Assembly: GCA_040390065.1 (NCBI GenBank)
Contig: JAZJZE010000005.1
Span: 128,001 to 192,000, forward strand
Direction: 5' to 3'
Length of the DNA stretch: 64,000 bases
Origin: a bacterium
Lineage (GTDB): Archaea > Thermoplasmatota > E2 > JACPAO01 > JAHFTW01
The position numbers were made by a program, and so were the translations under genes. This document shows positions 304 through 64,000 of this stretch, one piece after another (positions within the stretch are counted from its first letter, which is position 1; every line of letters starts with the position of its first letter). The notes beneath the pieces are model-generated. The model worked only from the letters and a program-made list of their open reading frames with translations, did not search any database and was not told the origin of the DNA.

Positions 304-3015
304 CTACTTGCCCTGGCGGTGCCGGAACGCCCACACGAACAGACCGGCCACCAGGACGGCGCCGATGCCCGTCCCCAGGAGCATTGCCCAGAGGGGCATG
401 CCGGAAGCGGGCTGCGCCTGTTGCCCGATGGACGACGAGACGGGGACCGTCGGGGTCACGTCCTGGCTCACGGGGTCGGCGTCGCGGCCGAGGCGCAACT
501 CGACGGTGTAGGTCCCTGCCGCCGTGTACTTGTGCGTCACCGTGGGCGAGGCCGTCGTCTTGGTGTCCATGTCGCCAAAGTCCCAGACGTATTCGTCGGC
601 GGCGCCATTGGCGGCAAACAGCACGGAGCCGTCGGGTTGCGGGATGGCCTTGAAGGACGTGGGAGGCGGCGGCGCACCTTGGAGCCAGATCCGGACGGTG
701 TCCACGGAGCGGTAGTAGCCGTCGGTGGCCGTGACCTGCAAGTCGACGAAGGACGAGGGCGTGTCGGCCGGGATGTCGAGCGACAGCTTGGCGCCGTTGG
801 CCGGCAGGCCCGGGAGGGGCAAGCCGCCGGTCTGCGTCCAGGCGAACGTGAGGGCGTCGCCATCGGCGTCCGACGAGGCGCTGGCGTCGACCGAGACGCG
901 GTTGCCCTTCGTCACGGTGACGTCCTTGCCTGCAACCGCTTGTGGCGGGTGCTGGTTCTTCGTGACGACGCTGACCTGCACCGTGTCCTCGAGCGAGTCC
1001 ATCGTCCCGTCCGAGACCTTGGCGGCAAAGACCAGGACGACGGGCTGCAGCGGGTTGGCCGCCGCCGGCGCCGTGAATTCGGGTTCGGAGGTGTCGGTGC
1101 GCGTCATGGCGACCGTCGGGCCGCTCACCTGGCGCCACATGTACTGCAGCGCGCTCGTGGAACCGCTTGCACTGGCCGAGAGCTTGACGTGCGAGCCGTC
1201 GGGGACGGCCTGGTCCTCGCCGGCATCGACGGTGGGTGGGCTGTTGCCCGGTGTGCTGCCACCCTCCGGCGCCGGCGGCGGGTTCGCCGAGCCCGGTTGG
1301 CCCACGACCACGGTCTGGTCGAGGAAGGAGGCGCAGCTCACGGAGTCGAAGACGCCGAGGCGGACCTTGTAGTCGCCCGCGGCGAGGAACGTGTGCGACA
1401 GGCTTTGCGTGGTCGACGTCTGGCCGTCACCGAAATCCCAAGCCCATTTCTGGATGGTCGCGCCGCCGCCGTCCGTGCTCAAGTCGGAGAACGACACGGG
1501 CTCGCCGGCTTCGATGGCGCCAGTCGTGAACATGAAGTTGGCGTGCAGGAACGGGCATCCCGAGCCGTCCTCGATTGTCACGGCCGGGCAGTCGACGGCG
1601 GTGCTCCAGGCGCCGCCGTTGTCGCGCACCCGAAGCGTCGGAGTGTACGTGCCGGGGGTGGTGAAGGTGATGGCCGGGCTCTGCACGGACGAGGTGGAGG
1701 GCGAGCCGCCGGGGAAGTTCCAGTCCCACTGCACGACGGTGCCGTCGGAGTCTGCCGAACCGGTATCGGAGAAGGTGACGGGGAAGCCGGTGACGTAGGG
1801 CGCCACCGTGGTCGCCGCGCAGGCCGCCGTGGGGCTCTGGTTGCCCGGAGCGCCGCATGCGTCGACCGTGAGGGTGACGGTTGCCGTGCCGCTCTGGAAC
1901 GCCGTGCCGGGGGAAACCTGGTAGGCGCCCATCGGGTCGTCGACCTTGTACGTGAACGTGGTGGATCCGCCGCAGAACGTACCGGGGTCGTACGTGAAGC
2001 CGCCGTCGGTGCCGAGGGTGAGGGTGCCCTTGCCCGCCGGCACGTCCGTCACGAGGACGGCCGTCTTCTGCGCGCAGGGGAGTTCGTCCTTGTCGTTGGC
2101 AAGCACTCCGTCGCTGGAGATGTAGAACGGGATGCCAATCTGGGCGCCAGGCTGCGTCCCTCCCGCGACGGTCAGCGGCGTTCCCGCGGCGACCGAGTAC
2201 GAGTCGTCGGCCGCGACCGGGGCGGCGTCGAAGATGGGGGTGAAGCGGACGCCGTAGTTGGACAGCGTGGTGCTGCCGAAGTCGCGGTAGATGCCGCCCT
2301 GCCAGCCGAAGCTGCCGTCGTAGGCGCTTTCGATGCCGAGGATGCGGCCCAAGCCGCCCCACGCCGTGCCGACGTTGCCGTTGGAATTCTGGACGTGCAC
2401 CTCGACGACGGAGCCGGCTTCGTGGAGTTGGATCTCGAACTGGTGGCCGGGGTAGCTGAAGGCGAAGCTGCCGGTTGGCGGCGCCTCGGGGCTCTTCTCA
2501 AGACCCTCCCATGCGAACGTGTAGACGCGGTTGCCGGCCGCGCCGGTGACGCCCGAGACCAGGGCGCCGCCGTCGGAGGGGTCCCAGTCATACCACAAGC
2601 CGGCGACGACGGTGTTGGGGGCTCCCGCGTTCGGCATCTGCTGACCCTGGTAGCCGGTCGTCGACAAACCGGCCGGGTCGAGGGTCATGATGCCATTGTC
2701 CGAGGCCATCATGGTGGAATACGGTTGGCCGAAGTACGTCATGGTGAAGCCCAAGGGATCCTGCTGGGTCGTGACCTCGTCGATGGCGGGGACCCAGTTG
2801 GAGTCGCCCGGTTCGATCCAGCTGTAGACGCCCACGTTCGTGTAGTCGTAGCGCAGCTTCTTGGCGGCGTCGCACCACGTGCCTGTACCGGACGACATCA
2901 CGGTGGCGCTGACCGGGTGGGGGGCCACCACGACGAGGGCACCCACGACGAGGAGGGCGCTCAGCCAGGCCGCCGCCATCCATGACTTGTTCTCCGGAGT
3001 GGATCGTCCCGACAT
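304..3015 (-). CDS. PKD-domain cell-surface protein (NIDO-like head, Ig/cadherin-like repeat, PKD, two Ig-like modules, PKD, C-terminal TM)
   Basis: Likely start MSGRSTP at 3015 within ORF 304..3921. Signal peptide ..LLVVGALVVVAPHPVSA; WDFGDG PKD motifs; PVAADDSY..GVLAND..GGFTYDP Ig repeat; C-terminal TM followed by RHRQGK. Confidence 0.85.
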   Translation of the reverse strand: MSGRSTPENKSWMAAAWLSALLVVGALVVVAPHPVSATVMSSGTGTWCDAAKKLRYDYTNVGVYSWIEPGDSNWVPAIDEVTTQQDPLGFTMTYFGQPYSTMMASDNGIMTLDPAGLSTTGYQGQQMPNAGAPNTVVAGLWYDWDPSDGGALVSGVTGAAGNRVYTFAWEGLEKSPEAPPTGSFAFSYPGHQFEIQLHEAGSVVEVHVQNSNGNVGTAWGGLGRILGIESAYDGSFGWQGGIYRDFGSTTLSNYGVRFTPIFDAAPVAADDSYSVAAGTPLTVAGGTQPGAQIGIPFYISSDGVLANDKDELPCAQKTAVLVTDVPAGKGTLTLGTDGGFTYDPGTFCGGSTTFTYKVDDPMGAYQVSPGTAFQSGTATVTLTVDACGAPGNQSPTAACAATTVAPYVTGFPVTFSDTGSADSDGTVVQWDWNFPGGSPSTSSVQSPAITFTTPGTYTPTLRVRDNGGAWSTAVDCPAVTIEDGSGCPFLHANFMFTTGAIEAGEPVSFSDLSTDGGGATIQKWAWDFGDGQTSTTQSLSHTFLAAGDYKVRLGVFDSVSCASFLDQTVVVGQPGSANPPPAPEGGSTPGNSPPTVDAGEDQAVPDGSHVKLSASASGSTSALQYMWRQVSGPTVAMTRTDTSEPEFTAPAAANPLQPVVLVFAAKVSDGTMDSLEDTVQVSVVTKNQHPPQAVAGKDVTVTKGNRVSVDASASSDADGDALTFAWTQTGGLPLPGLPANGAKLSLDIPADTPSSFVDLQVTATDGYYRSVDTVRIWLQGAPPPPTSFKAIPQPDGSVLFAANGAADEYVWDFGDMDTKTTASPTVTHKYTAAGTYTVELRLGRDADPVSQDVTPTVPVSSSIGQQAQPASGMPLWAMLLGTGIGAVLVAGLFVWAFRHRQGK

Positions 3016-3086
3016 ACCGACCAAGCGGGGACCAAGTCTCCTACGATTAAAGCGTTCCCGAGTCGGCCGTCCACTGTCGCCCGGAG

Positions 3087-6029
3087 TTAGCGGACGTTGC
3101 GATGGCGGATGGCCCACACGAACAGGCCGGCAAACAGGACCGCTCCAACCGCAAGACCCGCCCAGAGGGCCCACGCCGCGTTGCCGCTCCCCGTGGGCTC
3201 GACGTGGGCGACAGGCGTCGCCTGGGGCACGGTCGGGGTCACGTCCTGCTGGACCGGCGTCGCATCGGCGCCGAGGCGCAGTTGCACCGTGTACGTTCCA
3301 GGCGACGTGTACTTGTGGCTCACGGAGGCGCCCGTTGACGCCGCCGTCGCCGTGTCGCCGAAGTCCCAGATGTACTCGGCCGCTTGCGCGTTGGCGGTGA
3401 AGCGCACCGAGCCGTCCGCCTGCGGCGCGGCTGAGAAGCCTGAGGCAGGTGCCGGCGCGGCCTGCAGCCAGATGCGAACCGTGTCGGCTGCGCGGTAATA
3501 CCCGTCGGTGGCCGTCAGCGTCACGTCGACGAAGGCCGCCGTCGTTCCCACCGGAATGGCCAAGGTGAGCGTCGAACCGGACGCGGGCAGGCCCGGGATG
3601 GCGTCGCCGCCGTCTTGGGCCCAGGCATAGGAGAGGGCATCTCCGTCGGGGTCGGATGAGGCGCGCGCGTCGAGCGTGGCCGTGCCGCCCTTGGCGACCG
3701 TGATGTCCTTCCCCGCCACGGCGATGGGCGCGTGCTGGTTCTTGGTGACGATGGTGATCTGCACGGTGTCTTCCTGCGATTCCATGGTCCCATCCGAGAC
3801 CTTCACACCGAAGGTCAGTGGCAAGGGCTCGAGCGGGCTGGCGACGGCAGGGGCCGTGAACTCCGGCTCCGCAGTGTCGGCGAATGTCAGCGTCATGGCG
3901 GGACCGGCCAGCTGGCGCCAAGAATACGTGAAGGACGCCGTGGAACCGCTGGCGCTTGCCGCGAGCTTGATGTGGGCTCCCTCCGGAGCCGTCTGGTCCT
4001 CCCCGGCGTAGACCGTGGGCGGAGCGTACCCTGGTGTCTGCCCGCCTTCGCTCGTGCTTGGCGGCTCAGATTGGCCGGTCACGGTGACGTCGACGGTCTG
4101 CTCGGCGATGTCCGTGCACGGGAGGTCGTCGACGATGCCCAAGCGCACCTTGTACTGCCCCGCCGCGAGGAAGGTGTGCGACAGGCTCTGCAGGTTCGAC
4201 GAGTATCCGTCGCCGAAGTCCCAGGACCAACTCTTGATGACGTGGCCGCCGCCGTCCTTGCTCACGTCGGAGAAGGAGACGGGCTCACCGGCCTCGATGT
4301 GGCCCGCCGTGAAGATGAAGTTCGCGTTGAGGAACGGACACGCGCCGTCCACGACCTCGACCGTGCAGGTGGCCGTCTGCGTGGCACTCGTCACGACGAC
4401 GCTCTTGGTACCCACCGACGAGAAGGTCGTGGCAAACGAGGCGCCCGAACCCGTGGCTGGCGAGTCGCCGCCAGTCCATGCAAAGGTGCCGTCGCCGCCG
4501 GCGGCGTTGACCGTCGCGGGCAGACCCAGGGCCACGAATTGCGAGGCCGGCGTGCAGCTTGGCGCTCCGGGCAGGCTGATGGTGACGATGCACGTGCCGG
4601 TTTGCGCGTTGCTCGTGACCACCACGCTCTTCACGCCAGCCGTGGAGAACGACGTGGAGAAGGACGCGCCGGAGCCCGTCGCGGGCGAGCCGCCGCCAGT
4701 CCACGCGTACGTGCCGTCGCCGCCCGTCGCCGAGAAGGCCAGTGTCTGGCCGGTGACGCCGGTTGCGGGCCCCGAGCACGCCGTCGGCGTGGGTGGCGTC
4801 GTGTCGACGATGTTGACGTTCACCGTGATGGTCGGGTTGTCGTAGCCGTCGTCGAGCCGGTACGTGAAGCTGCAGGTGCCGACGTACGTGGCCGGCGGCG
4901 TGTAGGTGAGGCTCTTGCCGCCGTAGTAGTAGAGGGGGCTGTAGGTCGGCGACGCCGTCGGCATGAATCCGGCAAGGCTGCCGGCGCCGCCGCACGCAGC
5001 GCTCGGGTTGCTCACCCAACTGTACCGCTTGGGGTCGTTGGAGTCGAGCGACCATGCGAGTGATGTTCCCTTGTTGATGGTGACCGTCGTGCTCACCGCG
5101 CCCGTGCATTGCGGGTACGGGGACGTCGCGGGACATGCGGGTTCAGCCCCGTTCTGGAAGAAGCGCCAGCCCTTCGAGATGCATTCCATGTTCTGGCCCG
5201 TGGGGCAGTTCGGCCAGCCATCGGCGCTGCACGGCCCAGCCGCCCACGCATCAATGAGGCCAGGGCCGCCTGGACCTGCGTTGCCGACCACAAACGGATG
5301 GCATGAGATGACGGCCTGCGACTTGACGTCGCCCGCGTCGGCGCATTTGAGGTGGAATTCGAAGACGTCGGAGTTCGGGATGAGCTTCAGTTCGAAGGTG
5401 CTGCCGTACACCGTGCTGGTGATGGATTCACACCGCGCCTTGGTGGTGCACTCGCCCCCCTCGCCGTACCCGGAGACATGGTTGAATTCCATGAAGTACG
5501 CCGTCGAATCGTCGGCGGCCGCCGGCGACAACGTGGCCGAGCCGACCAGGACCTGGCCAGTGCTCGGGTCGTCCGGGTCGGCGGACGCACCGCCCGGGCA
5601 CAGGTCGCCCCAGAACGGCGCGATCATGGCCGAATTGGGCCAGAAACTTGGCACGTTGCTGGGCGCGTAGCTCTGCCCGGTGCCGGAGAACGAGAGGAAG
5701 CCGTTGGCGGAGACGTAGCCCGAACTGTACGATCCGCCGTAGTAGTTGAACGCGGGAAGGTTGACGAAGCACATGTCCTCGTCGAACGCGCACCCGGTCT
5801 GCACGAGGTCGGTGATGCCGGACCCCGCGACGTACTGGAAGCTGTACAGGTTGCCTTGGACGTTGTCTACGCCGACGTAGTTCGCCGAGTCGGGGCCGGC
5901 CACGACGCTGGCATCGGCATTGGTTGCCGTCCACGTCAAGACAGCGACAAATCCCGCCAGGGCCAGGATGGCAATGCGCCAAACGCGCGGGCTTCGTACA
6001 AGCTTCGCAGGACCACCGAGGACTCCCAT
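3087..6029 (-). CDS. PKD-domain cell-surface protein (NIDO-like head, two tandem Ig-like repeats, shared PKD stalk, C-terminal TM)
   Basis: ORF 3087..6050, start at 6050 or 6029. FNYYGGSYSSGYVSANGFLSF..IAPFWGDL NIDO-like motif; WDFGD motifs; C-terminal half closely similar to the 304..3015 product. Confidence 0.85.
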   Translation of the reverse strand: MGVLGGPAKLVRSPRVWRIAILALAGFVAVLTWTATNADASVVAGPDSANYVGVDNVQGNLYSFQYVAGSGITDLVQTGCAFDEDMCFVNLPAFNYYGGSYSSGYVSANGFLSFSGTGQSYAPSNVPSFWPNSAMIAPFWGDLCPGGASADPDDPSTGQVLVGSATLSPAAADDSTAYFMEFNHVSGYGEGGECTTKARCESITSTVYGSTFELKLIPNSDVFEFHLKCADAGDVKSQAVISCHPFVVGNAGPGGPGLIDAWAAGPCSADGWPNCPTGQNMECISKGWRFFQNGAEPACPATSPYPQCTGAVSTTVTINKGTSLAWSLDSNDPKRYSWVSNPSAACGGAGSLAGFMPTASPTYSPLYYYGGKSLTYTPPATYVGTCSFTYRLDDGYDNPTITVNVNIVDTTPPTPTACSGPATGVTGQTLAFSATGGDGTYAWTGGGSPATGSGASFSTSFSTAGVKSVVVTSNAQTGTCIVTISLPGAPSCTPASQFVALGLPATVNAAGGDGTFAWTGGDSPATGSGASFATTFSSVGTKSVVVTSATQTATCTVEVVDGACPFLNANFIFTAGHIEAGEPVSFSDVSKDGGGHVIKSWSWDFGDGYSSNLQSLSHTFLAAGQYKVRLGIVDDLPCTDIAEQTVDVTVTGQSEPPSTSEGGQTPGYAPPTVYAGEDQTAPEGAHIKLAASASGSTASFTYSWRQLAGPAMTLTFADTAEPEFTAPAVASPLEPLPLTFGVKVSDGTMESQEDTVQITIVTKNQHAPIAVAGKDITVAKGGTATLDARASSDPDGDALSYAWAQDGGDAIPGLPASGSTLTLAIPVGTTAAFVDVTLTATDGYYRAADTVRIWLQAAPAPASGFSAAPQADGSVRFTANAQAAEYIWDFGDTATAASTGASVSHKYTSPGTYTVQLRLGADATPVQQDVTPTVPQATPVAHVEPTGSGNAAWALWAGLAVGAVLFAGLFVWAIRHRNVR

Positions 6030-37504: not shown

Positions 37505-38713
37505 ATGCCGTGGACAGCCTCCATGGACATGATGAGCCTGGTCGAATCGGAGTTGGGCGGGCCGACGGTCTTCCGGGACTTGTCGAAGCTCGACTTCGAC
37601 TACGTGCCCCCCGACCTGCCTGGCCGCGAGGCGTCCCTCAAGTGGCTCTCCGGCGTCTACCGCCCGATGACGATGGGCGCCCAACGCGAGCACGCTTTCC
37701 TCTGGGGCCCCGTCGGCACCGGCAAGACGGCGCTCGCCAAGCGCTTCGGCTACGACTTCAAGGCCGCGTTGTCGAAGCAAGGCCGCACCCTCGAGGTCGT
37801 GCACGTCAACTGCCGCAAGCGCAAGACCGCCGGCCTTGCCATGCTCGGCGTCCTCAACCACTTCGACGCGAACTATCCGGAACGCGGCTTCTCCGTCGGC
37901 GAGATGCTGCGCGATCTCCGGAAGCACCTGGAGCGCAAGCAGGCGCACCTGCTCGTCATCCTCGACGAAGTGGACGCTCTTCTGCGCAGCGACGGCTCCA
38001 ACCTTGTCTACGACTTGACGCGCTTCAACGACGAGTCCGGCCCGTCCTGGACCGGCGTCAGCCTCATCCTCGTCAGCCAGGAGAACGTCCTTGGCGGCCT
38101 CGATCCCGCCGCACTCTCCACCTTCAAGGCCACGAACGTCCACCACATCGAACCGTACGGTGTGGCGGAACTCGAGAAGATCGTGCAGCAGCGCGTCCAG
38201 CTCGCCTTCCAGTCCGGCGCCGTCGCCGAAGAGGTCGTGACGCTGGTCGCGGACATCGCATCGCAGGAAGGCAACGCCAGACTTGCCATCGAGATCCTGC
38301 AGAAGGCCGGCCAGAACGCCGACGACGAGCAGCGCAAGGAGGTCCTGGCCGAGGACGTGCGCACCGCTAAGGCCGACTCGTTCTCCTACATCACGACGAG
38401 CAAACTCTCGGCCCTGCCCCGCCACCCGCTGCTGGTCCTGCTCGCCATCGCGCGTCGCCTCCGCAAGGACGGCGCCTACGCCACGACAGGCTCCGTCGAG
38501 AAGGCCTACGCCCTCGTCTGCGAGGAGTTCAGCGAGGAGCCGCGCGCCCACACGCAGTTCTGGAAGTACCTCAACCAACTCAAGGACGGCGGCTTCATCC
38601 TCAGCCGGTTGTCCGGAAAAGGCCAGGCGGGCACGACGCAGCTTCTCTCCATCCCGGACGCCCCGGCGCATGCCGTCGAGGCAAAACTCCTGGAGCTTCT
38701 GCAGAAGCCCTAA
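37505..38713 (+). CDS. cdc6: Orc1/Cdc6 replication initiator AAA+ ATPase
   Basis: LDFDYVPPDLPGRE, Walker A GPVGTGKT, VHVNC, Walker B VILDEVD, PY...ELEKI..QRV, GNARLAI, C-terminal winged helix HTQFWKYL..G.GTT. Start may be at 37523. Confidence 0.95.
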   Translation: MPWTASMDMMSLVESELGGPTVFRDLSKLDFDYVPPDLPGREASLKWLSGVYRPMTMGAQREHAFLWGPVGTGKTALAKRFGYDFKAALSKQGRTLEVVHVNCRKRKTAGLAMLGVLNHFDANYPERGFSVGEMLRDLRKHLERKQAHLLVILDEVDALLRSDGSNLVYDLTRFNDESGPSWTGVSLILVSQENVLGGLDPAALSTFKATNVHHIEPYGVAELEKIVQQRVQLAFQSGAVAEEVVTLVADIASQEGNARLAIEILQKAGQNADDEQRKEVLAEDVRTAKADSFSYITTSKLSALPRHPLLVLLAIARRLRKDGAYATTGSVEKAYALVCEEFSEEPRAHTQFWKYLNQLKDGGFILSRLSGKGQAGTTQLLSIPDAPAHAVEAKLLELLQKP

Positions 38714-38772
38714 AAACCGCTCCCTTCCAGGTGGGCCGTTCCTTTTACAAACCTTTTCAGGGGGTGCACGAC

Positions 38773-39471
38773 ATGGTAGGAGCAATGCAGGAGCCGCCCA
38801 AGGAACGCCTCCAGGAACGCGAGGCGATGCTTGCCGAACTCGAGTCGGGCGGTTACCTCAACGATCCACGGCTCGAGGAGGCGATGCTGGCCGTGCCGCG
38901 GCACCTGTTCGTCCCAAAGGAACTGCGCGAGGCCGCGTACGAGGACCGGCCGCTGCCAATCGGCTTCGGCCAGACGGTCTCGGCGCCGCACATGGTCGCC
39001 ATGATGACCACGGCGCTGCAACTCGAAGAGGGGCAGCGCGTGCTCGAGGTCGGAACGGGTGTCGGCTACCATGCGGCCATCGTCAAAGCCATCGTCGGCG
39101 ATGCCGGCTCCGTCGATTCCGTCGAGTTCCTCCCCGAACTTGTCGAACTTGCGCGAAAGAACCTGAAGACCGCACACATCGCCGTGGACGTCCACGAGGG
39201 CGACGGCGCGGAAGGGTGGCCGACCAAGGCCCCATACGACGCCGTCTACGTGACGTGCGCCATCCCGGACATCCCAGACGCCATCGTCGACCAGCTCAAG
39301 GAAGGCGGCCATTTCATCGCCCCGATCGGCGTGACGCGCTGCCAACTTCTCGCCGGTCGCAAGGTCGATGGCGAACTCGACCTCGAGGACCTCGGGCCTT
39401 GCCTGTTCGTCAACGCACAGGGCGCGCTCGGCCAGTCGGAAGGCGACGGCGATGCGCCGTCGGCGGAATGA
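38773..39471 (+). CDS. pcm: Protein-L-isoaspartate O-methyltransferase
   Basis: VPRHLFVP..AYEDRPLPIGFGQTVSAPHMVA, VLEVGTGVGYHAA, GDG.EGW...APYD. Confidence 0.93.
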   Translation: MVGAMQEPPKERLQEREAMLAELESGGYLNDPRLEEAMLAVPRHLFVPKELREAAYEDRPLPIGFGQTVSAPHMVAMMTTALQLEEGQRVLEVGTGVGYHAAIVKAIVGDAGSVDSVEFLPELVELARKNLKTAHIAVDVHEGDGAEGWPTKAPYDAVYVTCAIPDIPDAIVDQLKEGGHFIAPIGVTRCQLLAGRKVDGELDLEDLGPCLFVNAQGALGQSEGDGDAPSAE

Positions 39472-39532
39472 CGGAACCCCTTCACTGACCCCGGGCGAAC
39501 AACGTTAAGCCCATCGGGGGCCTCGGCGCCGC

Positions 39533-42500
39533 GTGGCTGCCCTGCTGAACCTGTCCAACAGCCACCTCTTCTGGCAGGGACGGGAGCCGGAACCCATCGA
39601 GCCCCTGCACCGCCCGTCGTTCCTTGCATTTCCGCAGGACCCTCGCGAGCCCATCCACAAGGCCCACGCGCGGCTTGCCGGCCTCATCGCCGGAGCGCAG
39701 GGGCAAAGCAGCGAGGAGAACGCCCTTGCCAAGGCCCTGGAGGTCCGCGAGCCGGTGCGCTACAAGTCGTTCTGGAACCACGGCCAATCCCGCGAGGTCA
39801 TCCCCGTCGTCGCCAAGCGTAGCTACTGGGTCCCCGACATCTCCGACGAGCTGTTCTTCCGCCACGGCTTCTACACGATGGAGCACGACATCCCGTACAC
39901 GGAGCGCGCCGCCGCAGACCTGTCCGCGGAGAAGGGATGGTGGCTTCTCGACACGCAGGGCCATCCGAACAAGCTGAACGTCCTGACCTACGACATCGAG
40001 ACGACGCAGTACGGCAAGGGGCCGGCCATGACGGACCCGATGCAAGGCGAAGCGTCGGCCGTCACAGCGCCGGGCGGACGCACGCGGGGGGCGGCCGGGT
40101 CGGCCCCCTCGCTGCCCATCGACATCATCGGATACGCTGAATTCGACGTCGAGTATTCGGCGCAGAAAGACCTCGACACGGAGCAGTTCGACTTCCAGTT
40201 CCGCCACATCCCCGGCGACTGGGCGAAGCGGGAGGTGCACCAACTCGTCGCCCGCAACGTCGACGAGGAGATGGACAACCTGATGCAGTTCACGCAGCAT
40301 GCGGTCTCCAAGGACGTCATCGCAGGCCACAACATCCTGGGCTTCGACAACAAGCAGGTGCACGACCGGATCCTCGACCTGCTGGCCCGCGACCAGCGGC
40401 GCCAGACGATGTCGCCGCGCATGCGCGAGTGGTTCCAGCGCTACACGTCGGTGTTCTCGCGGCCCGACAAGTCGTTCCACTGGGGCGAACGCCAGGATAC
40501 GGCGGTGCTCCATCCCATCAGCCTGGACACGTTCCACGCGGCGCGCAAGTTCTACTTCTTCCACGACGACTTCACCCTCAAGGGTCTGGCGCCGTGGCTG
40601 GGCATCGACGTGCCCGACCGCGTCTACCTCGACCCGCATGAGATGGGCCTCGACCCCAAGACGCTCCTCTACAACAAACACGACATCCAGGAGCAGGTCG
40701 GCATCACGCAGATGCTCATCGCACAAGCCCTTCCGCTCTGCTTCACCGTCAACCTGCCGTTGGATGACCTGCTGACGGGTGGCAACACGAAGATGTGGGA
40801 CCACATGGCGTTCCTGCGGGCGCGACGCAACCGGAAGATGATGCCGGCCACGGCGCGGGCGCAAGGCATCGCGCGCAGCATCCAACGGTTCGTGTCGAAG
40901 CCGTTCCCGACGCGCGACGAGATTGCCGCCGCCGTGCGGGATTGGCCGCCGGAGGAACGCGCCGCCGCGGCGAACAAGGAATTCATCCGCGTCGCCAAGC
41001 AAGGCCCCGAGATGCCGTTCTGGTGCGAGCACCCGTCCGTCATCGTCAAAGCCGACGCGAGTGCAAGCGGCGACCCCGACGACCCAAACGGTTACGCCAT
41101 CCCCGGCGGCATGACACTGAAGCCGGATTCCGAACTGAAATCGCACTTCGTCCCGTGGTACCACGTCGTGGCCGCCGACGTCGGGGCGATGTACCCGACC
41201 ATCCTGAAAGCGCGCAATCTCACGGCGGACACGGTCGTGCCAGCCCGGAAGGGCGAGACGCCGGACGACTGGATCTGGCTGTTCGAGCTCGACGCCGACT
41301 TCATCGCGTCCGACAAGTACGTCGTCAAGAAGGCCGACCCGGCCGACACGCTCACGAAAGGCAAGGGTTGGCTCATCGGTGTCAAGCACAACCCGGAGCC
41401 CGGCATGGTGAACCTCGCCATGACGGGCATCCTGTCGACCATCCAGAAGGTGAAGACGAATCGTGCCCGGGCCAAGAAGGACAACCGCGGCAAGGACGAG
41501 ATCCGCATCCTCGACATGACGTACGCGAGCCTCAAGGCCGCACGCAATGCCGGCACGCACGGCATCCTCGTTGCCGTGAACGTCTCCTGCCGCCAGTTCA
41601 ACGTCTGGGGCGGCGCCAACATCACGACCATCGGCCAGCGCATCCTGCAGGAGTCGCTCGACGACTTCCAGGCCAAAGGGATGCGGGTCGTCTACGGCGA
41701 TACGGACGGCATCTACATCGGCTGCAGCAAGTCCGCCGGCAACTTGCCGCATTTCGCCGCCGCACTGGATGCCGACGTCGAGCCCGAGACGGACAAATGG
41801 ATCACCATGCCAGCGGACGCCTTGACCGCCATCGCGGCAGCGAACCGCAAGTGGCGCGACGCCCTCAACTACGAGGGCTTCGAGTTGGAAGCCGAAACGC
41901 ACGACGCCATGGTGTTCGTCGTGCACAAGAACTACCTCATCTTCGACACGGACCCCAAGGGTGGCGTGCGCCTCGAGACGAAAGGCAACAACTTCAAGGC
42001 GAGCGACAAGGCGCCGCTGACGCAACAGGTCCTGCGCGACATCATGGCCAAGGCCCTCAAGGACGTCGCGTCGTGGACGAAGGAGGAGGATGCCCGCGAG
42101 GCGATGAAGGTGGCAATCAAGAAGGCCACGAAGGAGGTCATGGCGTCGGTGCAGGTCGCGAAGACCGACTGGGCCGACTTGATCCTGCGGCAATCCGTCT
42201 CGCCCATCAAGTCCTACGAACCCAACCCGGACGGGACCCTGCGCAGTCAAGCGGTACGCACCGCGGCCCTCGAGGACCTTCTCGGCGAGGCCATCACGGC
42301 GACGCGCAAGTTCAAGTTCATCGTCTGCCGCGACCCGCTGCCGCTCTACAAGGAGAAGGAGCGCCAGGAGCGCAAGGTGCACGAACTCAAGCGCAGCGGC
42401 CACCAGCTCATCGTCAAGGAGCCGAAGAACCGCGGCCTCAAGCCTATCGAGTACATGTGGCCCGTGGAGAAGGTCACGCCGGGGCAGGTCGATTGGGCCT

Positions 42501-42595
42501 GGTACAAGTCGATGGTCGAGGACTACGTCAAGGGGGCCTTCGGCTTCGATTCCCTTGAGTTGGCGACACAGCGGGACCTGTCGAGCTGGTTCTAG
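39533..42595 (+). CDS. polB: Family B DNA polymerase (divergent), with 3'-5' exonuclease domain
   Basis: ExoI YDIETT, ExoII GHNILGFD, ExoIII YNKHD; polymerase motif A DVGAMYP, motif B KAARNAGTHG, motif C YGDTDG; KKNY-like HKNY; C-terminal PIP-box-like QRDLSSWF. Confidence 0.88.
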   Translation: MAALLNLSNSHLFWQGREPEPIEPLHRPSFLAFPQDPREPIHKAHARLAGLIAGAQGQSSEENALAKALEVREPVRYKSFWNHGQSREVIPVVAKRSYWVPDISDELFFRHGFYTMEHDIPYTERAAADLSAEKGWWLLDTQGHPNKLNVLTYDIETTQYGKGPAMTDPMQGEASAVTAPGGRTRGAAGSAPSLPIDIIGYAEFDVEYSAQKDLDTEQFDFQFRHIPGDWAKREVHQLVARNVDEEMDNLMQFTQHAVSKDVIAGHNILGFDNKQVHDRILDLLARDQRRQTMSPRMREWFQRYTSVFSRPDKSFHWGERQDTAVLHPISLDTFHAARKFYFFHDDFTLKGLAPWLGIDVPDRVYLDPHEMGLDPKTLLYNKHDIQEQVGITQMLIAQALPLCFTVNLPLDDLLTGGNTKMWDHMAFLRARRNRKMMPATARAQGIARSIQRFVSKPFPTRDEIAAAVRDWPPEERAAAANKEFIRVAKQGPEMPFWCEHPSVIVKADASASGDPDDPNGYAIPGGMTLKPDSELKSHFVPWYHVVAADVGAMYPTILKARNLTADTVVPARKGETPDDWIWLFELDADFIASDKYVVKKADPADTLTKGKGWLIGVKHNPEPGMVNLAMTGILSTIQKVKTNRARAKKDNRGKDEIRILDMTYASLKAARNAGTHGILVAVNVSCRQFNVWGGANITTIGQRILQESLDDFQAKGMRVVYGDTDGIYIGCSKSAGNLPHFAAALDADVEPETDKWITMPADALTAIAAANRKWRDALNYEGFELEAETHDAMVFVVHKNYLIFDTDPKGGVRLETKGNNFKASDKAPLTQQVLRDIMAKALKDVASWTKEEDAREAMKVAIKKATKEVMASVQVAKTDWADLILRQSVSPIKSYEPNPDGTLRSQAVRTAALEDLLGEAITATRKFKFIVCRDPLPLYKEKERQERKVHELKRSGHQLIVKEPKNRGLKPIEYMWPVEKVTPGQVDWAWYKSMVEDYVKGAFGFDSLELATQRDLSSWF

Positions 42596-56615: not shown

Positions 56616-56885
56616 ATGCGCAAGATCGTGCTCCAGGCCAAGGCGCTGAAGTGGGGGAACTCGTACGGCTTCCGTATCACGAAGGCGGACTTCGAGCGGG
56701 CCGGGCTGCACATCGGCCAGGAGGTCCAAGTGGACGTTGTCGGCCGCCCCGGCAAGTTCGACCTCAGCCAGGTCCCGTCCTTCCGCCTGGGCTCACTGAC
56801 CCGTGAAGACCGGGACGCGGCCGCGGAGGCGCGCTGGGCTGAGAAACAGGCCCGATCCCGCGGTCCAGGCCGGGAGAAGGAATGA
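56616..56885 (+). CDS. vapB: AbrB/MazE-type antitoxin (VapB-like)
   Basis: KWGNSYGFRITK..GLHIGQEVQV swapped-hairpin motif; overlaps the PIN gene by ATGA. Confidence 0.85.
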   Translation: MRKIVLQAKALKWGNSYGFRITKADFERAGLHIGQEVQVDVVGRPGKFDLSQVPSFRLGSLTREDRDAAAEARWAEKQARSRGPGREKE

Positions 56886-57253
56886 AGGCCGTCGACACGA
56901 GCTGGCTCTTCGCGTTCTTGTCAAGCACAGACGAATTCCACACCCAAGCGCGGCGGCAAGCGGCGGAGCCGGACACCATCCTGGTCAACTCAATCGTCCT
57001 TGTGGAGACCTTGGACCTGGTGCGCGGCCGCAGCGACCGCGCCACGTCGCTGCACGCTCTCAAGACCGTGGCCAGCCTCCAGAATGTCCGCCTCACGAAT
57101 TCGCCGACGGCCGCGAACATGGCGCGCCTCATGGAGAGACACGGCGGCATCTCGTGGCACGACGCTGCTGCGATCTGCACGGCCCTCGACGAAGGCGCGG
57201 GGCTGCGTACGTTTGACCAAGCCCAAGCAAGGGCGTTCAAGGCCATGCTCTAA
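56882..57253 (+). CDS. vapC: PIN-domain toxin (VapC-like)
   Basis: VDTSWL..DEFH..A, LVET, ISWHDA, TFD conserved acidic residues. Confidence 0.88.
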   Translation: MKAVDTSWLFAFLSSTDEFHTQARRQAAEPDTILVNSIVLVETLDLVRGRSDRATSLHALKTVASLQNVRLTNSPTAANMARLMERHGGISWHDAAAICTALDEGAGLRTFDQAQARAFKAML

Positions 57254-60251: not shown

Positions 60252-60396
60252 GGGCGCGGCACCCCGGCCGCCATGAAGAAGGGTTTGCTCCTGGGAATTG
60301 GGTCCATCCGGGGCCGGACAAGCCATGCCGTTCCAGAAGGCGTGCACGAAAAACTCTATCTGCCACCAGGTTCCTCCTTCAGGTGGTGGCCGTCTG

Positions 60397-62121
60397 ATGA
60401 GGACCCTCGTTGCTTTCCTGTTGGTCGGGGCGACCCTGACGATTGTCCCGGGGTCCGCCGACGCCGCGACCAGTTGGTGCGGCACGCAAGGCGTCACGTT
60501 GTTCTGTGACGACTTCACAACCAACCAGGGCTGGACGAAGTCCGGCTATGGCCTGCAGCCCTGCGGCAGCGACATCGGCCAATGCTACAACCCCACGGAC
60601 TGGCTGAAGTCCACCCGCGGCTGGGACTACGGCGTGTGGACTCCCAATGGTGACAGCAACTCGTGGTTCGTGGGCGTGCAGGGCGGCGGCCAGGATCTCG
60701 GCTACCTCGCGCCGCAGCCCTTCGGTCTCTTCCTGGGCGGCATTATCGCCGGCAAGGGTGCGGCTTGGTACGACGTGCGCAACGTTCTCACCTCCCCGCT
60801 CATCGACGCCACCGGCGCACAACTCACGACCATGAGCTATGCCGTGAAGGGCAGCTCCGAAGGCAGCCTGTACGACCGCCTCGAGGTCTGGGTGCAGGTC
60901 GCGGGCGGCGGCACCACGATGCTCGGCTCCTACGCTGGCAACCAGATCCAGGGCGACATCTGCAACTGCTTCTACACGTTCCCGTTCTCGGCGGCCTGGC
61001 TGTCCGGGCAGAAGTTCCAGTTCCTGTTCATCTTCATCGAGGATGCCAACACCGACAGCGTCACACCTCCGCCATGCCTGGCCGTGTCCGTCCCGACCGG
61101 TCAGTCGCCGCCGATTCCGCCCAACGCCGGGTGCCCCGTTGGAGCAACGGTCTGCGCGCCGGCGCTCTTCAGCGGCTCCGGCTGCCTGTACGGCGGCATG
61201 GGCTTCTGGGTTGACGACGTCATCGTACGCAAACTCACGAAGGCGCCCATCGCCCAGTTCGTCTACAAGTACAAACCCGTGTGCGAAGGCGGCTTCCACG
61301 TGGACTTCACGGACGGCTCCGTCGACACCGACGGCACCGTTGCAGCCTGGAACTGGGACTTCGGCGACAAGACGACAAGCAACCAGCAGAACCCGTCGCA
61401 CGACTACCAGTCGGAAGGCACGTACAAGGTCGTGGAAGACATCCAGGACAACGAGGGAAATCCTGCCCAGTACATCTTCACGATCATCCTGAAGTACACA
61501 AAGTGCCCCGAGCCGGGAAGCACTCAGGAACCAATCCCCATGACGGTGTCCGAAGGCAACCAAGCACAGACGCGGCCACCGCATGATGGCACGGACCCCG
61601 CCGCTGCAGGCCTCGACACCGACGGCGACGGCGTGCCCGACGCGATCGACCTCTGCCCCGCGCAGGCGGACGACCAGGCGGACTCCGACGGCGATGGCAT
61701 CGGCGATGCTTGCGACGTCGACGCGGACAACGACGGCATCATCAATCCACGTGACAACTGCGCGACGGTCCCGAACCCCGGCCAGGCCAACCTCGACGGC
61801 GACGAAGAAGGCGACGCGTGCGACGCCGACATCGACGGCGACGGCGTGCCCGACGCGGCCGACAACTGCCCGAGCTTGACCAACAAGGACCAGGCGGACC
61901 TCAACGCGGACGGAGCCGGCGACGCGTGCCAAATCGTGCGCAACGCCGCGGAGGACAAGACCTCCGAAGTCGGCGCATCCGCCGGCACCCGCACCGACTC
62001 ACAGGCCGGCTTGCCCAGGACGGTGCCGGCGGGATCCCCCACGGCAGGCATTGGCGCAATCGTCCTCGGCCTCGGCCTGCTCGCCGTCGCGCTGGTCGTG
62101 GCGCTGCGCCGCCGTAGCTGA
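60397..62121 (+). CDS. Surface protein with jelly-roll/adhesin-like head, PKD domain, thrombospondin type 3 Ca-binding repeats and C-terminal TM
   Basis: Signal peptide; LTSPLID..GFWVDDV; WNWDFGD..QNPSHDY PKD; repeated DxDGDGxxDxxDxCP; TM followed by RRRS. Confidence 0.88.
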
Positions 62122-62145
62122 ACGCCGGTCAAGCGTCAACAACCC

Positions 62146-62202
62146 TTGAATACCGAGGGGGTTTGCCCGCGGACGCAGAAGGACATTCTGCCTCAACGGT
62201 GA
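62146..62202 (+). promoter_or_regulatory. Candidate promoter of the MNIO operon: TATA-like TTGAATA, inverted repeat GCAGAA-N5-TTCTGC and SD-like GGTGA
   Basis: TTGAATA at 62146-62152; inverted repeat at 62175-62191; GGTGA at 62198-62202, 5 nt before ATG 62208. Confidence 0.5.
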
Positions 62203-62207
62203 ACACA

Positions 62208-62507
62208 ATGGCAATCTTCGGATGGAAAAAGAAGAAGGCAGAGGCAGGCACCACGACCACGGCCGCCACGGCGAAGGCTGGAGCCGACATGAGTTGCGGC
62301 TCAGCGAAGGGCGGCGACATGTCGTGCGGCTCGGCAAAGGCCGAGGGCGGCGCGGACATGAGCTGCGGCTCGGCGAAGGGCGGCATGCCCACCGTCAAGG
62401 CGTCCGCCAAGATGACGCAGAAGGCGCCCGCCAAGAGGGCCAAGACGCCGGCAAAGACCAGCGTCAAGGCGAAGGTCGCGGCCAAGCCTGCATCGAAGAA
62501 GAAGTGA
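62208..62507 (+). CDS. Putative RiPP precursor for the adjacent MNIO enzyme (3x DMSCGSAK, Lys/Ala-rich tail)
   Basis: 99 aa; the only Cys residues lie in three identical DMSCGSAK repeats; 6 nt upstream of the DUF692 gene. Confidence 0.8.
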   Translation: MAIFGWKKKKAEAGTTTTAATAKAGADMSCGSAKGGDMSCGSAKAEGGADMSCGSAKGGMPTVKASAKMTQKAPAKRAKTPAKTSVKAKVAAKPASKKK

Positions 62508-62513
62508 CACGGC

Positions 62514-63359
62514 ATGGGCCGCCTTTCCCCCTCCTCCCTCCCTTTCCTTGGCGCCGGCATCGGCTACCGCGGTGACCTCGCCAGGTTCTTTCGTCGGCAC
62601 GATGCCCGCATCGGCTTCTTCGAGGTCATGCCTGAGCACGTCGTCCACGGCGCTGCCGAACGGCGCGCCCGTTTGTTCGAGCACGTCGCCGGCAAGCCCG
62701 TCGTGACGCACAGCGTCAGCCTCAGCGTCGGCACGGCGACCGGGGCCGACCTGGTCTTCGCACGCAGCATGGCACGCATCAACCGCAAGCTCCGCGCGGC
62801 GTGGTGCAGCGACCACCTTTCGTTCACGCGCATCGGTGGGCAGAACATCGGCCAACTCACGCCAATCCCGTACACGGACGAGGCGCTTCGCCGCGTCGTC
62901 GCCAACGTCAAGGCAGTGCAGGCTGCGGTCGGCCTACCGTTCCTGCTGGAGAACATCTCGCAATACTTCCGGTACCCGCGCACGGACATGACGGAGCCCG
63001 AGTTCTTCCGGGAGGTGACCGCGCAAACGGGCTGCGGCATCCTCCTGGACGTCACCAACCTGCGCAACAACGCCGCCAACATCGGCGTCAAAACCAAGGC
63101 GTACCTCGAGGCCTTCCCGCTCGACCAAGTGGTGCAGCTCCACCTTGCCGGCTCCGAGTGGATTGGCGGCAAGCTCCTCGACACGCATGGGGCCGCAATC
63201 CACCGGGACGTCTGGCGCATGGCAGACGACATCGTGCAGGCGCATCCCGTGCGCGCCCTCCTCATCGAGCGCGACCAGACATTTGGGCCACTTCCGCAAC
63301 TGGCTCGCGAGATCCGCCGCGGGGCCACGACCATGCGCAACGCCATGGGGGCTGCCTGA
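62514..63359 (+). CDS. DUF692 family multinuclear non-heme iron-dependent oxidative enzyme (MNIO; MbnB/TglH/HvfB/BufB-like)
   Basis: GIGYR, FEVMPE, THSVSLS, SDHLSF, LLENIS, LLDVTN, QLHLAG, DTHG, LIERD: the family's iron-ligand motif set. Confidence 0.93.
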   Translation: MGRLSPSSLPFLGAGIGYRGDLARFFRRHDARIGFFEVMPEHVVHGAAERRARLFEHVAGKPVVTHSVSLSVGTATGADLVFARSMARINRKLRAAWCSDHLSFTRIGGQNIGQLTPIPYTDEALRRVVANVKAVQAAVGLPFLLENISQYFRYPRTDMTEPEFFREVTAQTGCGILLDVTNLRNNAANIGVKTKAYLEAFPLDQVVQLHLAGSEWIGGKLLDTHGAAIHRDVWRMADDIVQAHPVRALLIERDQTFGPLPQLAREIRRGATTMRNAMGAA

Positions 63360-64000
63360 TGGGACTTGCATCCGTGCAGCAGGCGGTCGCGACTCTCCTC
63401 ATGGAGGACACCGTCCGGGAGGCTTGGGTCGTGAATCGTTCCGCCTTTGCGCGCAAGTGGCGCCTGGCGGGACGCGACGCACGCCTAGTGGCCGGGTTGG
63501 ACGCACGCGACCTGACGTACTTCGCCGCGCACCGCCGCATCGACCGCATGGCGATGCTCGCGGCCGAGATGCCCCGCAGCGCAAGGACGCTGGGCGAACG
63601 CGGCCTCGGCTCGTATTTCCAGCGTCATCCATACGCCCTCGAGGCGACGGCCGCCGAGACCGCGCGCTTTGCCGCATGGGCCGCGCGCCATGCGAAGCCG
63701 GCCGTCGCGGACCTGGTCCGCTTCGAGATGGCGCAAGCGCGCTTGCGACGCGCCCGCCCCCGCGCCGCCGCCGCGTCCGTCCACCCGACGCGCGCGCCCG
63801 GGGTCGTCCTGCTGCGCCTTGCGCACAGGGTCGACGGCACGCGTCTCCGGCCGGCCAGCCCGACGTTCTATGGATTGCGGCGACTCTCGGACGAAGTCGC
63901 CTGGTTCCGGTACGGCGCCTTGGAGGAAACGCTGCTGCGGACCGCCAACGGCCGGACCGGCGAAGCGGCATGGTTGCGGCGCGCGGCGAGTGAATGTGAC
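63359..64000 (+). CDS. Putative MNIO partner / RiPP-recognition protein (DUF2063/HvfC/BufC-like), truncated by the window end
   Basis: TGATG coupling to the MNIO gene; manual translation MGLASVQQAVATLL..EMPRSARTLG....YFQRHP...RFAAW....ADLVRFEMA, open to 64000. Confidence 0.7.
   Translation, partial: MGLASVQQAVATLLMEDTVREAWVVNRSAFARKWRLAGRDARLVAGLDARDLTYFAAHRRIDRMAMLAAEMPRSARTLGERGLGSYFQRHPYALEATAAETARFAAWAARHAKPAVADLVRFEMAQARLRRARPRAAAASVHPTRAPGVVLLRLAHRVDGTRLRPASPTFYGLRRLSDEVAWFRYGALEETLLRTANGRTGEAAWLRRAASECD

Follow-up and report, generated by a model that had tools for sequence, protein, structure and literature searches.

A putative three-gene peptide-modification cassette with an MNIO enzyme and a Cys-repeat precursor in an aerobic Thermoplasmatota archaeon

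At the end of the window analysed here (the whole stretch of 64,000 nucleotides, positions 128001-192000 of contig 5 of a Thermoplasmatota genome) lie three genes on the forward strand, which encode a short Cys-repeat peptide, an enzyme of the MNIO family (oxidative enzymes that depend on multinuclear non-haem iron, DUF692) and a third protein, hereafter called the partner, whose open reading frame (ORF) was completed from the sequence beyond the window (Table 1). Few families of peptide-modifying enzymes are as large, or as surprising in their chemistry, as the MNIOs. The initial annotation of this DNA, made from the sequence alone, had taken the three genes for a tightly coupled operon that makes a RiPP (a peptide made by the ribosome and modified after translation), and the coupling is indeed close: a GGTGA motif lies 5 nt upstream of the ATG of the peptide gene, only 6 nt separate its stop codon from the start of the MNIO gene, and the stop codon of the latter overlaps with the ATG of the partner gene in the sequence TGATG (63357-63361), the A at 63359 being common to both genes. 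Scans of the window against Rfam and for tRNAs gave no match. The cassette consists of these three genes, as no DoxX, transporter, protease, exporter or copper gene (CopA, CopZ) is conserved in its neighbourhood.

Table 1. Features of the cassette and of its surroundings. Positions are those of the window; L002 coordinates run beyond its end. RRE, RiPP recognition element.
Feature	Position	Strand	Remarks
Precursor peptide gene	62208..62507	+	99 aa plus stop, TGA at 62505-62507
N-terminal head, residues 1-10	62208..62237	+	family pattern MG[ILF][FIM](..)FG.KK
Core unit 1, DMSCGSAK	62286..62309	+	Ser codon AGT; Cys30
Core unit 2, DMSCGSAK	62316..62339	+	Ser codon TCG; Cys40
Core unit 3, DMSCGSAK	62355..62378	+	Ser codon AGC; Cys53
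MNIO enzyme gene	62514..63359	+	281 aa; PF05114 match
Partner gene	63359..64000 in the window, on to window-equivalent 64096 (L002:1360-2097)	+	245 aa
Partner N-domain	about residues 1-131		helical, TglI/DUF2063-like in the model
Partner C-domain	about residues 141-239		RRE-type winged helix in the model
Antisense ORF	62129..62560	-	143 aa, over the peptide gene
PKD/thrombospondin type 3 repeat protein	60298-62121	+	607 aa; hydrophobic stretch before basic C-terminus
FIST-domain gene	L002:2126-3268 (window-equivalent from 64125)		29 nt after the partner gene
PAS-GAF histidine kinase gene	L002:3353-5218 (window-equivalent to 67217)		after the FIST gene, before a DEAD-box helicase gene

The peptide is strongly basic (20% Lys, pI 10.2). 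It begins with MAIFGWKKKKAE and comprises a MAIFGWKKKK head, three irregularly spaced DMSCGSAK units and a Lys/Ala/Pro-rich tail that ends in KKK. As had been observed initially, the three units are identical in protein and yet use a different Ser codon each; pairwise, the 24-nt units differ at 5, 2 and 4 positions, every difference being synonymous. The GC content at the third codon position (GC3) of the gene is 0.82. No Pfam or NCBIfam model matches the peptide, which agrees with the earlier view that the precursor lies outside known families. The motif [KM]SC[GSA][ST] occurs 35 times across the six frames of the 2.68-Mb genome, and clusters of at least three copies, with gaps of at most 12 residues, are found in the peptide gene only. 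Judged by hydropathy and not by a dedicated predictor, the peptide contains no Sec-signal-like hydrophobic core (over 9 residues, the Kyte-Doolittle mean peaks at 0.50), and in this respect the proposed likeness to the HvfA and bufferin precursors does not hold.

The second gene encodes, by its sequence, a bona fide and apparently active MNIO. Its match to PF05114 (MbnB_TglH_ChrH) has an E of 8.4e-75 and 251.8 bits, where the cut-off is 25, and spans positions 1-258 of the 263 in the profile; it is the sole PF05114 gene of the genome, and among the sequences of the PDB it matches 3bww (E 1.6e-32), TglH (E 4.2e-22) and MbnB (E 1.5e-12). The iron motifs had been called intact, and they are: the nine ligands given for TglH in the available text of PMC10880893 (H71, H107, E151, D184, H216 and E258, plus N187, D229 and H231) align, in this order, to H66, H101, E146, D179, H210, E252, N182, D223 and H225 of the archaeal enzyme, and none of the nine positions varies in the nine orthologues compared. 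Asp254, which belongs to an ERD motif two residues past the ligand E252, is invariant in the orthologues too and falls on the ERD of 3bww in the alignment; it may be the equivalent of FonB-Asp249, a proposed catalytic base. Among the named subfamilies, the BufB model NF050167 scores 215.6 bits and the HvfB model NF003818 180.1 bits, under their equivalog cut-offs of 310 and 360, respectively, and these scores are 2-5 times those of ApyH (109.3 bits), MbnB (TIGR04159, 52.5 bits, cut-off 325) and ChrH (39.6 bits). The enzyme thus appears to be nearest to the thiooxazole-forming group, while every named MNIO equivalog model scores it under the curated cut-off.

The partner gives no match to any Pfam or NCBIfam model and none to PF09836 (DUF2063) at E <= 0.1. 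Its structure was modelled with AlphaFold from an alignment of ten partners (A1), in which the window's own partner was represented by L002:1360-2094 and from which the L011 protein, with its in-frame stop, was left out. The model (mean pLDDT 91.5, pTM 0.80) has eight helices up to residue 131, followed by three strands (149-185) and three helices (187-229). Foldseek returned TglI (8hi7_A) as the first match (E 5.9e-7) and NGO1945 (3dee), which we take to be the DUF2063 prototype, as the third (E 1.5e-3); VIA-align gave Z 14.9 for TglI, with 235 of 245 residues aligned, and Z 14.0 for NGO1945 (176 residues), the next unrelated row reaching Z 9.8 over the C-domain only. Residues 141-239 superpose on the RREs of MibB, TbtB, lasso B1, TbiB1 and PqqD with Z 6.1-9.8 and a root-mean-square deviation of 2.2-2.7. 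The sequence identity of the partner to TglI is 14%, and a search of PDB sequences with the partner profile returned only noise (best E 0.012, unrelated proteins), so that the link to TglI and NGO1945 is one of fold. The initial description of the partner as DUF2063-like therefore stands as far as the modelled fold is concerned, but not with respect to the Pfam signature. The combination fits the published PME-type 2 class, which, in the accessible text of Antoine et al. 2025 (PMC12452194), lacks a DUF2063 Pfam signature, has an NGO1945/TglI-like fold with both domains and measures ~250 residues; according to the same passages, precursors without a signal peptide go with partners without a Pfam signature.

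In the set of 5.8 billion proteins a single-sequence search with the partner found only the partner itself, the search being word-indexed and weak for such sequences, while a HMMER profile search returned 1401 representative relatives at E <= 0.001, 41 of them at E <= 1e-30. A Pfam scan covered 146 proteins, namely 145 of the 150 listed hits and the window's own partner (five hits were dropped, four of them very long or fused), and it matched 14 to PqqD, 8 to NGO1945_C and 4 to DUF2063. We also observed that residues 1-47 of the partner (63359-63500) bear a likeness to leader domains of the LigA/SonA/Frankia_peptide/Nif11 type, which other RiPP precursors possess, on the basis of weak PDB profile matches to SonA and of a Z of 5.7 for the SonA chain; among the 146 scanned relatives 16 match Frankia_peptide and 5 match LigA. 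Some bacterial relatives (P0068, P0087 and P0101, proteins of 434-705 aa) carry the partner as a C-terminal fusion to a large N-terminal domain, which looks glycosyltransferase-like by eye, and in a Pseudoalteromonas locus a 714-aa protein with a similar N-terminus is encoded directly before the MNIO gene (L038:317-2458).

Among 60 relatives searched, a PF05114 enzyme is encoded in 8 of the 12 other genomes of the genus and in 2 of the 3 genomes of a second genus, and in none of the remaining 45. Across the phylum, 13 of 400 sampled other genomes encode it (14 of 401 with the genome studied here), and these belong to four GTDB families. The copies closest to ours, which we call type A, share 48-75% identity among nine genomes and 51-64% in five metagenome contigs, and they are spread over three GTDB families within a single archaeal phylum. 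Of two further contigs, one does not include the upstream part, and the other is different and only 33% identical. The initial annotation had suggested looking for Cys-repeat precursors next to archaeal homologues of the enzyme, and a peptide gene of the same design lies directly upstream of the MNIO gene in all 14 type-A loci with readable upstream DNA, ending 6-12 nt before its start. The partner gene follows the MNIO gene in 9 of 9 type-A genomes. In contrast, type-B enzymes are 34-40% identical to the MNIO of the window and have no K-S-C peptide upstream, and in eight bacterial loci that were found with the MNIO alignment (31-38% identity) the neighbouring genes are unrelated ones, and scans with two peptide patterns showed no K-S-C repeat ORF.

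The peptides of the family share the head given in Table 1, 2-15 units of the form [K/M]-S-C-[G/S]-[S/T], after which A/M/G and K come in most cases, and a Lys-rich end. They contain 16-27% Lys and have a pI of 9.5-10.2, and the peptide identity is 29-58%. In the alignment of the 14 peptides (A3), F4 and G5 are invariant and M1 is present in at least 90% of the rows, and nearly every Cys falls within S-C-[G/S/A]-[S/T], a motif that is kept while the number of units varies. The highest 9-residue hydropathy in any of the 14 peptides is 0.92, and thus none has a hydrophobic stretch. The core motif needs to be redefined from the MSCG originally suggested. Met before Ser-Cys occurs only in the peptide of the window, in that of the closest relative and in the database peptide P0153, and since Lys takes its place in all other members, Met is not a family feature and cannot be the family-wide additional Cu(I) ligand that had been envisaged; likewise, the Gly after Cys is often Ser, a replacement seen in three families. 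In public data these peptides are nearly invisible: in the 5.8-billion protein set one called peptide was found by single-sequence search and three by profile (a word-indexed search, weak for such sequences). None of the three has a family name and two are labelled "hypothetical protein"; two of them, P0152 and P0153, lie beyond the 14 loci and come without genomic context. Gene callers evidently miss such genes, so that surveys of protein databases undercount them.

Several of these loci have features of their own. In L017 a second precursor-like gene (L017:3174-3278, 35 aa, starting MDFLKKLFGKK and with two Cys units) follows the partner gene and is itself followed by a hydrophobic multi-helix ORF. 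The type-B loci (L011-L015 and L021) represent a second type of MNIO cluster, which other members of the genus and of the family carry, with a partner subtype of 17-22% identity; in two of them a small Cys-containing ORF, starting with MSYIKPL or MTYSKPL, follows the partner gene (L013:3319-3633 and L021:3121-3216) and could be the type-B precursor, and in L011 the type-B partner is interrupted by an in-frame stop (oriented about 2290-3100) that reflects either a pseudogene or an assembly error. The genome of L016 (G152, reverse strand; oriented 1-777; also L029) carries a partial second MNIO gene and a type-B-like partner gene directly upstream of its type-A cassette, hence two MNIO clusters in tandem. 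Finally, two of the eight type-A records of archaeal metagenome-assembled genomes (L030 and L036) are titled Halobacteriales archaeon, and the other six Thermoplasmatota or Thermoplasmata, probably because the public records are labelled inconsistently.

The comparison of relatives bears on two alternatives that would remove the peptide from the system. The small ORF might be no gene at all, but a frame that is open by chance, or antisense to another, in GC-rich DNA, considering that a 143-aa ORF overlaps it on the other strand and that gene callers so seldom report it. However, the start motif, the S-C motif, the position of the stop and the restriction of variation to synonymous changes are conserved in the forward frame across 14 loci at 29-58% identity, and the GC3 points the same way; we regard this explanation as extremely improbable. 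The antisense ORF was considered and set aside as an artefact that the repeat creates in this GC-rich genome, since the start motif, the S-C motif and the stop just before the MNIO gene all belong to the forward frame. Alternatively, the peptide could be a co-transcribed small basic Cys protein, metallothionein-like or nucleic acid-binding, with the MNIO acting elsewhere, and the Lys/Ala/Pro-rich tail does resemble a polyanion-binding segment. This tail, however, shrinks to a few Lys residues in the relatives from family f32, the peptide gene is found directly upstream of the MNIO gene in every one of the 14 loci from three families, the order precursor-MNIO-partner is canonical in the accessible part of PMC12452194, the cassette has no other small Cys ORF, and the RRE domain predicted in the partner implies a peptide substrate. 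We therefore consider this alternative very unlikely, and judge from the sequences that the Cys residues of the peptide are, with good confidence, modified by the MNIO and its partner.

The host is an archaeon. The 449,520-base contig shows no GC break across the locus, the GC content being 63-69% in all 50 contigs of the genome, and the genome contains an archaeal small-subunit rRNA (1451 bits, full length), a spacer tRNA and an archaeal large-subunit rRNA. Within the window, Orc1/Cdc6 is encoded at 37505-38713, and there is also a gene for a valine-tRNA ligase, with PRK13208 as its best model (720 bits). Downstream on the contig lies a gene of the ribose-1,5-bisphosphate isomerase/eIF-2B family, for which TIGR00511 is the best model with 215 bits, under its cut-off of 314, and which scores above the cut-off of the eIF-2B_rel subfamily model; it adjoins a homologue of the RuBisCO large subunit, for which the type III model is the nearest one (384.6 bits, under the cut-off of 497), with a DUF531 protein beside it. 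The isomerase-like and type III-like RuBisCO genes (L002:10638-12796) form an archaeal AMP pathway pair. The archaeal rRNAs, the archaeal genes on the contig and the even GC content argue that the contig is neither bacterial nor chimeric, a point on which the initial annotation had made its proposal depend. The genome also encodes subunit I of a haem-copper oxidase, and therefore the host uses O2 and possesses a copper-dependent enzyme.

Taken together, we propose, with a probability of about 70%, that the locus is a self-contained RiPP-type cassette of an aerobic Thermoplasmatota archaeon, which would oxidize the Cys residues of its peptide in an O2-dependent reaction and might thereby give a metal-binding product. 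The small gene would supply a Lys-rich substrate with a short recognition head, Ser-Cys units (three here, 2-15 in the relatives) and a basic tail. The partner would associate with the MNIO in a complex, like TglI with TglH, and present the peptide to it, probably by the head, as suggested by the gene order, the RRE domain and the TglI-like fold; on sequence grounds, we propose residues 1-10 as the leader that is held by the C-terminal RRE domain. A predicted complex of the MNIO, the partner and peptide residues 1-60 scored 0.02 against a mark of 0.32, in a run without controls that carries no verdict. The tri-iron enzyme would then oxidize one Cys after another with O2, so that each unit would most likely come to carry a single 5-thiooxazole or another, closely related heterocycle derived from its Cys, and the modified peptide might serve as a multi-site chelator of soft metals such as copper, remaining at full length in the cytoplasm or at the inner face of the membrane. 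An intracellular product, in contrast to the periplasmic captophorins and bufferins of bacteria, is probable, since there is no signal peptide and no protease or exporter in the conserved neighbourhood.

Given that the nearest named models are those of the BufB/HvfB group, a 5-thiooxazole is the most likely single product, although by this analogy we would put its chance at slightly less than even. The same cassette might instead perform a different reaction, such as excision of the beta-carbon in the manner of TglH, formation of an oxazolone and a thioamide in that of MbnB, cross-linking between the units or some undescribed chemistry, with no thiooxazole metallophore as a result. Published abstracts describe very different reactions for the MNIO subfamilies, and the invariant Ser before Cys and the Ser/Thr two residues after it, which are foreign to the captophorin motifs (Lys-Cys and Cys-Lys) in the available text of PMC12668002, could take part in the reaction. 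On the other hand, the BufB and HvfB models clearly outscore the remaining ones, the Cys-Gly or Cys-small dyad resembles the preference of FonB in the same source, and TglH, as far as the accessible descriptions go, acts on a C-terminally appended Cys and not on internal repeats. A departure from thiooxazole chemistry is thus a serious possibility, though on balance an unlikely one.

Several observations weigh against the proposed metal-binding cassette, and the first two speak also for the different chemistry. As the enzyme falls under all equivalog cut-offs, there is no family membership from which to deduce its chemistry. TglI is the best structural match of the partner model, yet TglH excises the Cys beta-carbon and makes no heterocycle. 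The analogy with copper buffering may not carry over, because the cassette has neither a Sec signal nor a partner with the DUF2063 signature. A strongly basic tail is no known feature of metallophores, and no copper gene (CopA, CopZ, DoxX or similar) stands in the conserved neighbourhood. Hence a role in copper handling, which we suggest by analogy, is tentative and less probable than the thiooxazole itself.

The fate of the product could also differ from the one proposed. Free copy number with a conserved unit sequence is typical of multi-core precursors, and it is conceivable that a housekeeping protease frees the modified units at the Lys residues that bound every one of them, releasing many copies of a small Cys-derived compound; in this family the number of units varies from 2 to 15 while their sequence is kept. 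However, the genes conserved next to the cassette include neither a protease nor an exporter, the spacing of the units is irregular, and the characterized peptides with EGKCG repeats act as whole peptides, according to the accessible part of PMC12668002. We find the release of single units improbable, and prefer the full-length chelator.

The genes that surround the cassette are not constant. Upstream lies the gene for the PKD repeat protein, probably a cell-surface protein, and beyond it PurT on the other strand; downstream, where the initial annotation had advised a look for DoxX, transporter or protease genes beyond position 64000, we found the FIST, PAS-GAF kinase and DEAD-box helicase genes (Table 1). 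The FIST/kinase pair and the surface protein accompany the cassette only in this genome and in the closest relative, and for this reason we rejected the FIST and kinase genes as parts of the system. In L008 and L048 a similar kinase gene precedes the cassette, on its upstream side, and none was seen in the other loci; a regulatory link of the kinase to the cassette is possible. Judging by the translations, a PurT-like gene lies directly upstream in two loci of relatives, and a DEAD-box-helicase-like gene directly downstream in two others. Elsewhere in the window, the region 37505-42595 encodes, besides Orc1/Cdc6, a protein-L-isoaspartate methyltransferase as well as a protein of 1020 aa that matches DNA polymerase B only faintly (~25 bits), and it could be a replication-origin region, while two small overlapping ORFs (56616-57253; 89 and 123 aa) encode an AbrB/SpoVT-type antitoxin and a PIN-type toxin by the look of their translations.

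The MNIO systems characterized or surveyed in the accessible literature are bacterial, and the large copper-binding group among them consists of Sec-exported peptides. The initial annotation knew of no archaeal example, and our literature search, which combined MNIO/DUF692, thiooxazole and bufferins with archaea and Thermoplasmatota, found none either, although the supplementary tables of the surveys could list some; the database of the landscape survey included archaeal genomes and, in the available text, its results are framed as eubacterial (PMC12452194). It is tempting to consider the product as the first one made by an archaeal MNIO and as the founder of a new class, namely an intracellular basic peptide with up to 15 Cys-derived heterocycles, possibly formed by new chemistry, which would buffer copper or another soft metal in the cytoplasm or deliver copper to the haem-copper oxidase; at present we regard this full scenario as attractive but doubtful. 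The chemistry may be new because no characterized MNIO substrate has its Cys in the invariant Ser-Cys-x-Ser/Thr setting of this family. If the scenario is true, the aerobic Thermoplasmatota would possess a cytoplasmic counterpart of the bufferins, in place of periplasmic detoxification. In any case, a simple, repetitive and easily synthesized substrate and a minimal three-gene layout make the cassette a tractable case in which to study how Cys residues are selected and how the outcome of the reaction is determined outside the BufB/HvfB equivalogs; the lack of an export signal allows a test of whether such peptides work inside cells too, and the family offers an entry point into the post-translationally modified peptides of uncultured Thermoplasmatota.

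Among the known systems, the captophorins (Buf1/Buf2, oxazolin/HvfA and fontiphorin) have the same order of precursor, MNIO and partner, and their BufB and HvfB enzymes provide the best hidden Markov model matches. In the accessible text of PMC12668002, a preprint, pairs of an MNIO and a PME-type 1 partner install 5-thiooxazoles on repeated Cys units, of which the EGKCG 5-mer is the commonest, FonB prefers a small residue after Cys, and the oxazolone of oxazolin, the product of HvfBC, has been revised to a 5-thiooxazole. Both groups have short repeats with one Cys each, a small residue after the Cys and Lys nearby (EGKCG in the captophorins, KSCGS in the archaeal family), and in both oxidation is presumed to take place at each Cys. 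By analogy, K-S-C-G-S resembles a substrate of the EGKCG type, and the additional Ser before Cys and the Ser/Thr after it could matter. However, the captophorins, as far as they are described, have Sec-exported precursors and PME-type 1 partners with the DUF2063 signature, they occur in a DoxX/DUF2282 context and they come mainly from Pseudomonadota (PMC12668002), whereas the archaeal cassette has none of these and adds the invariant Ser and the strongly basic tail. The system is thus captophorin- or bufferin-like in its working, but lacks three features of the class, namely the equivalog score, the DUF2063 signature and the Sec signal.

The TglHI pair of the 3-thiaglutamate/pearlin pathway from Pseudomonas syringae (PDB 8hi7) offers the closest fold for the whole length of the partner, all nine iron ligands are common to TglH and the archaeal MNIO, and in both systems the precursor has no signal peptide. 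The two differ in that TglH, according to the available descriptions, acts on the single C-terminal Cys of the scaffold TglA-Cys, whereas the archaeal units are internal repeats, and in that the other pearlin genes are not present here. The systems of PME-type 2 with signal-less precursors (adjamnio-1, -2 and -I) share the partner type and the lack of a Sec signal, but in the accessible text of PMC12452194 they are bacterial (placed on a "eubacterial phylogenetic tree") and their precursors have 8-21 Cys in 122-293 residues, with CxxC and CxxCC motifs, unlike the peptides described here. In the methanobactin system MbnABC an MNIO and a helper likewise act on the Cys residues of a small signal-less peptide to make a copper ligand; its enzyme model, however, falls far short for the archaeal MNIO, its MbnC chains reach only Z 4.9-5.0 with the partner model, and its precursor is a short leader plus core, in contrast to a long repeat peptide that has no transport or processing genes. 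Thus, the archaeal cassette appears to combine a known enzyme-partner logic with a new family of substrates, in a new domain of life and probably in a new cellular location.

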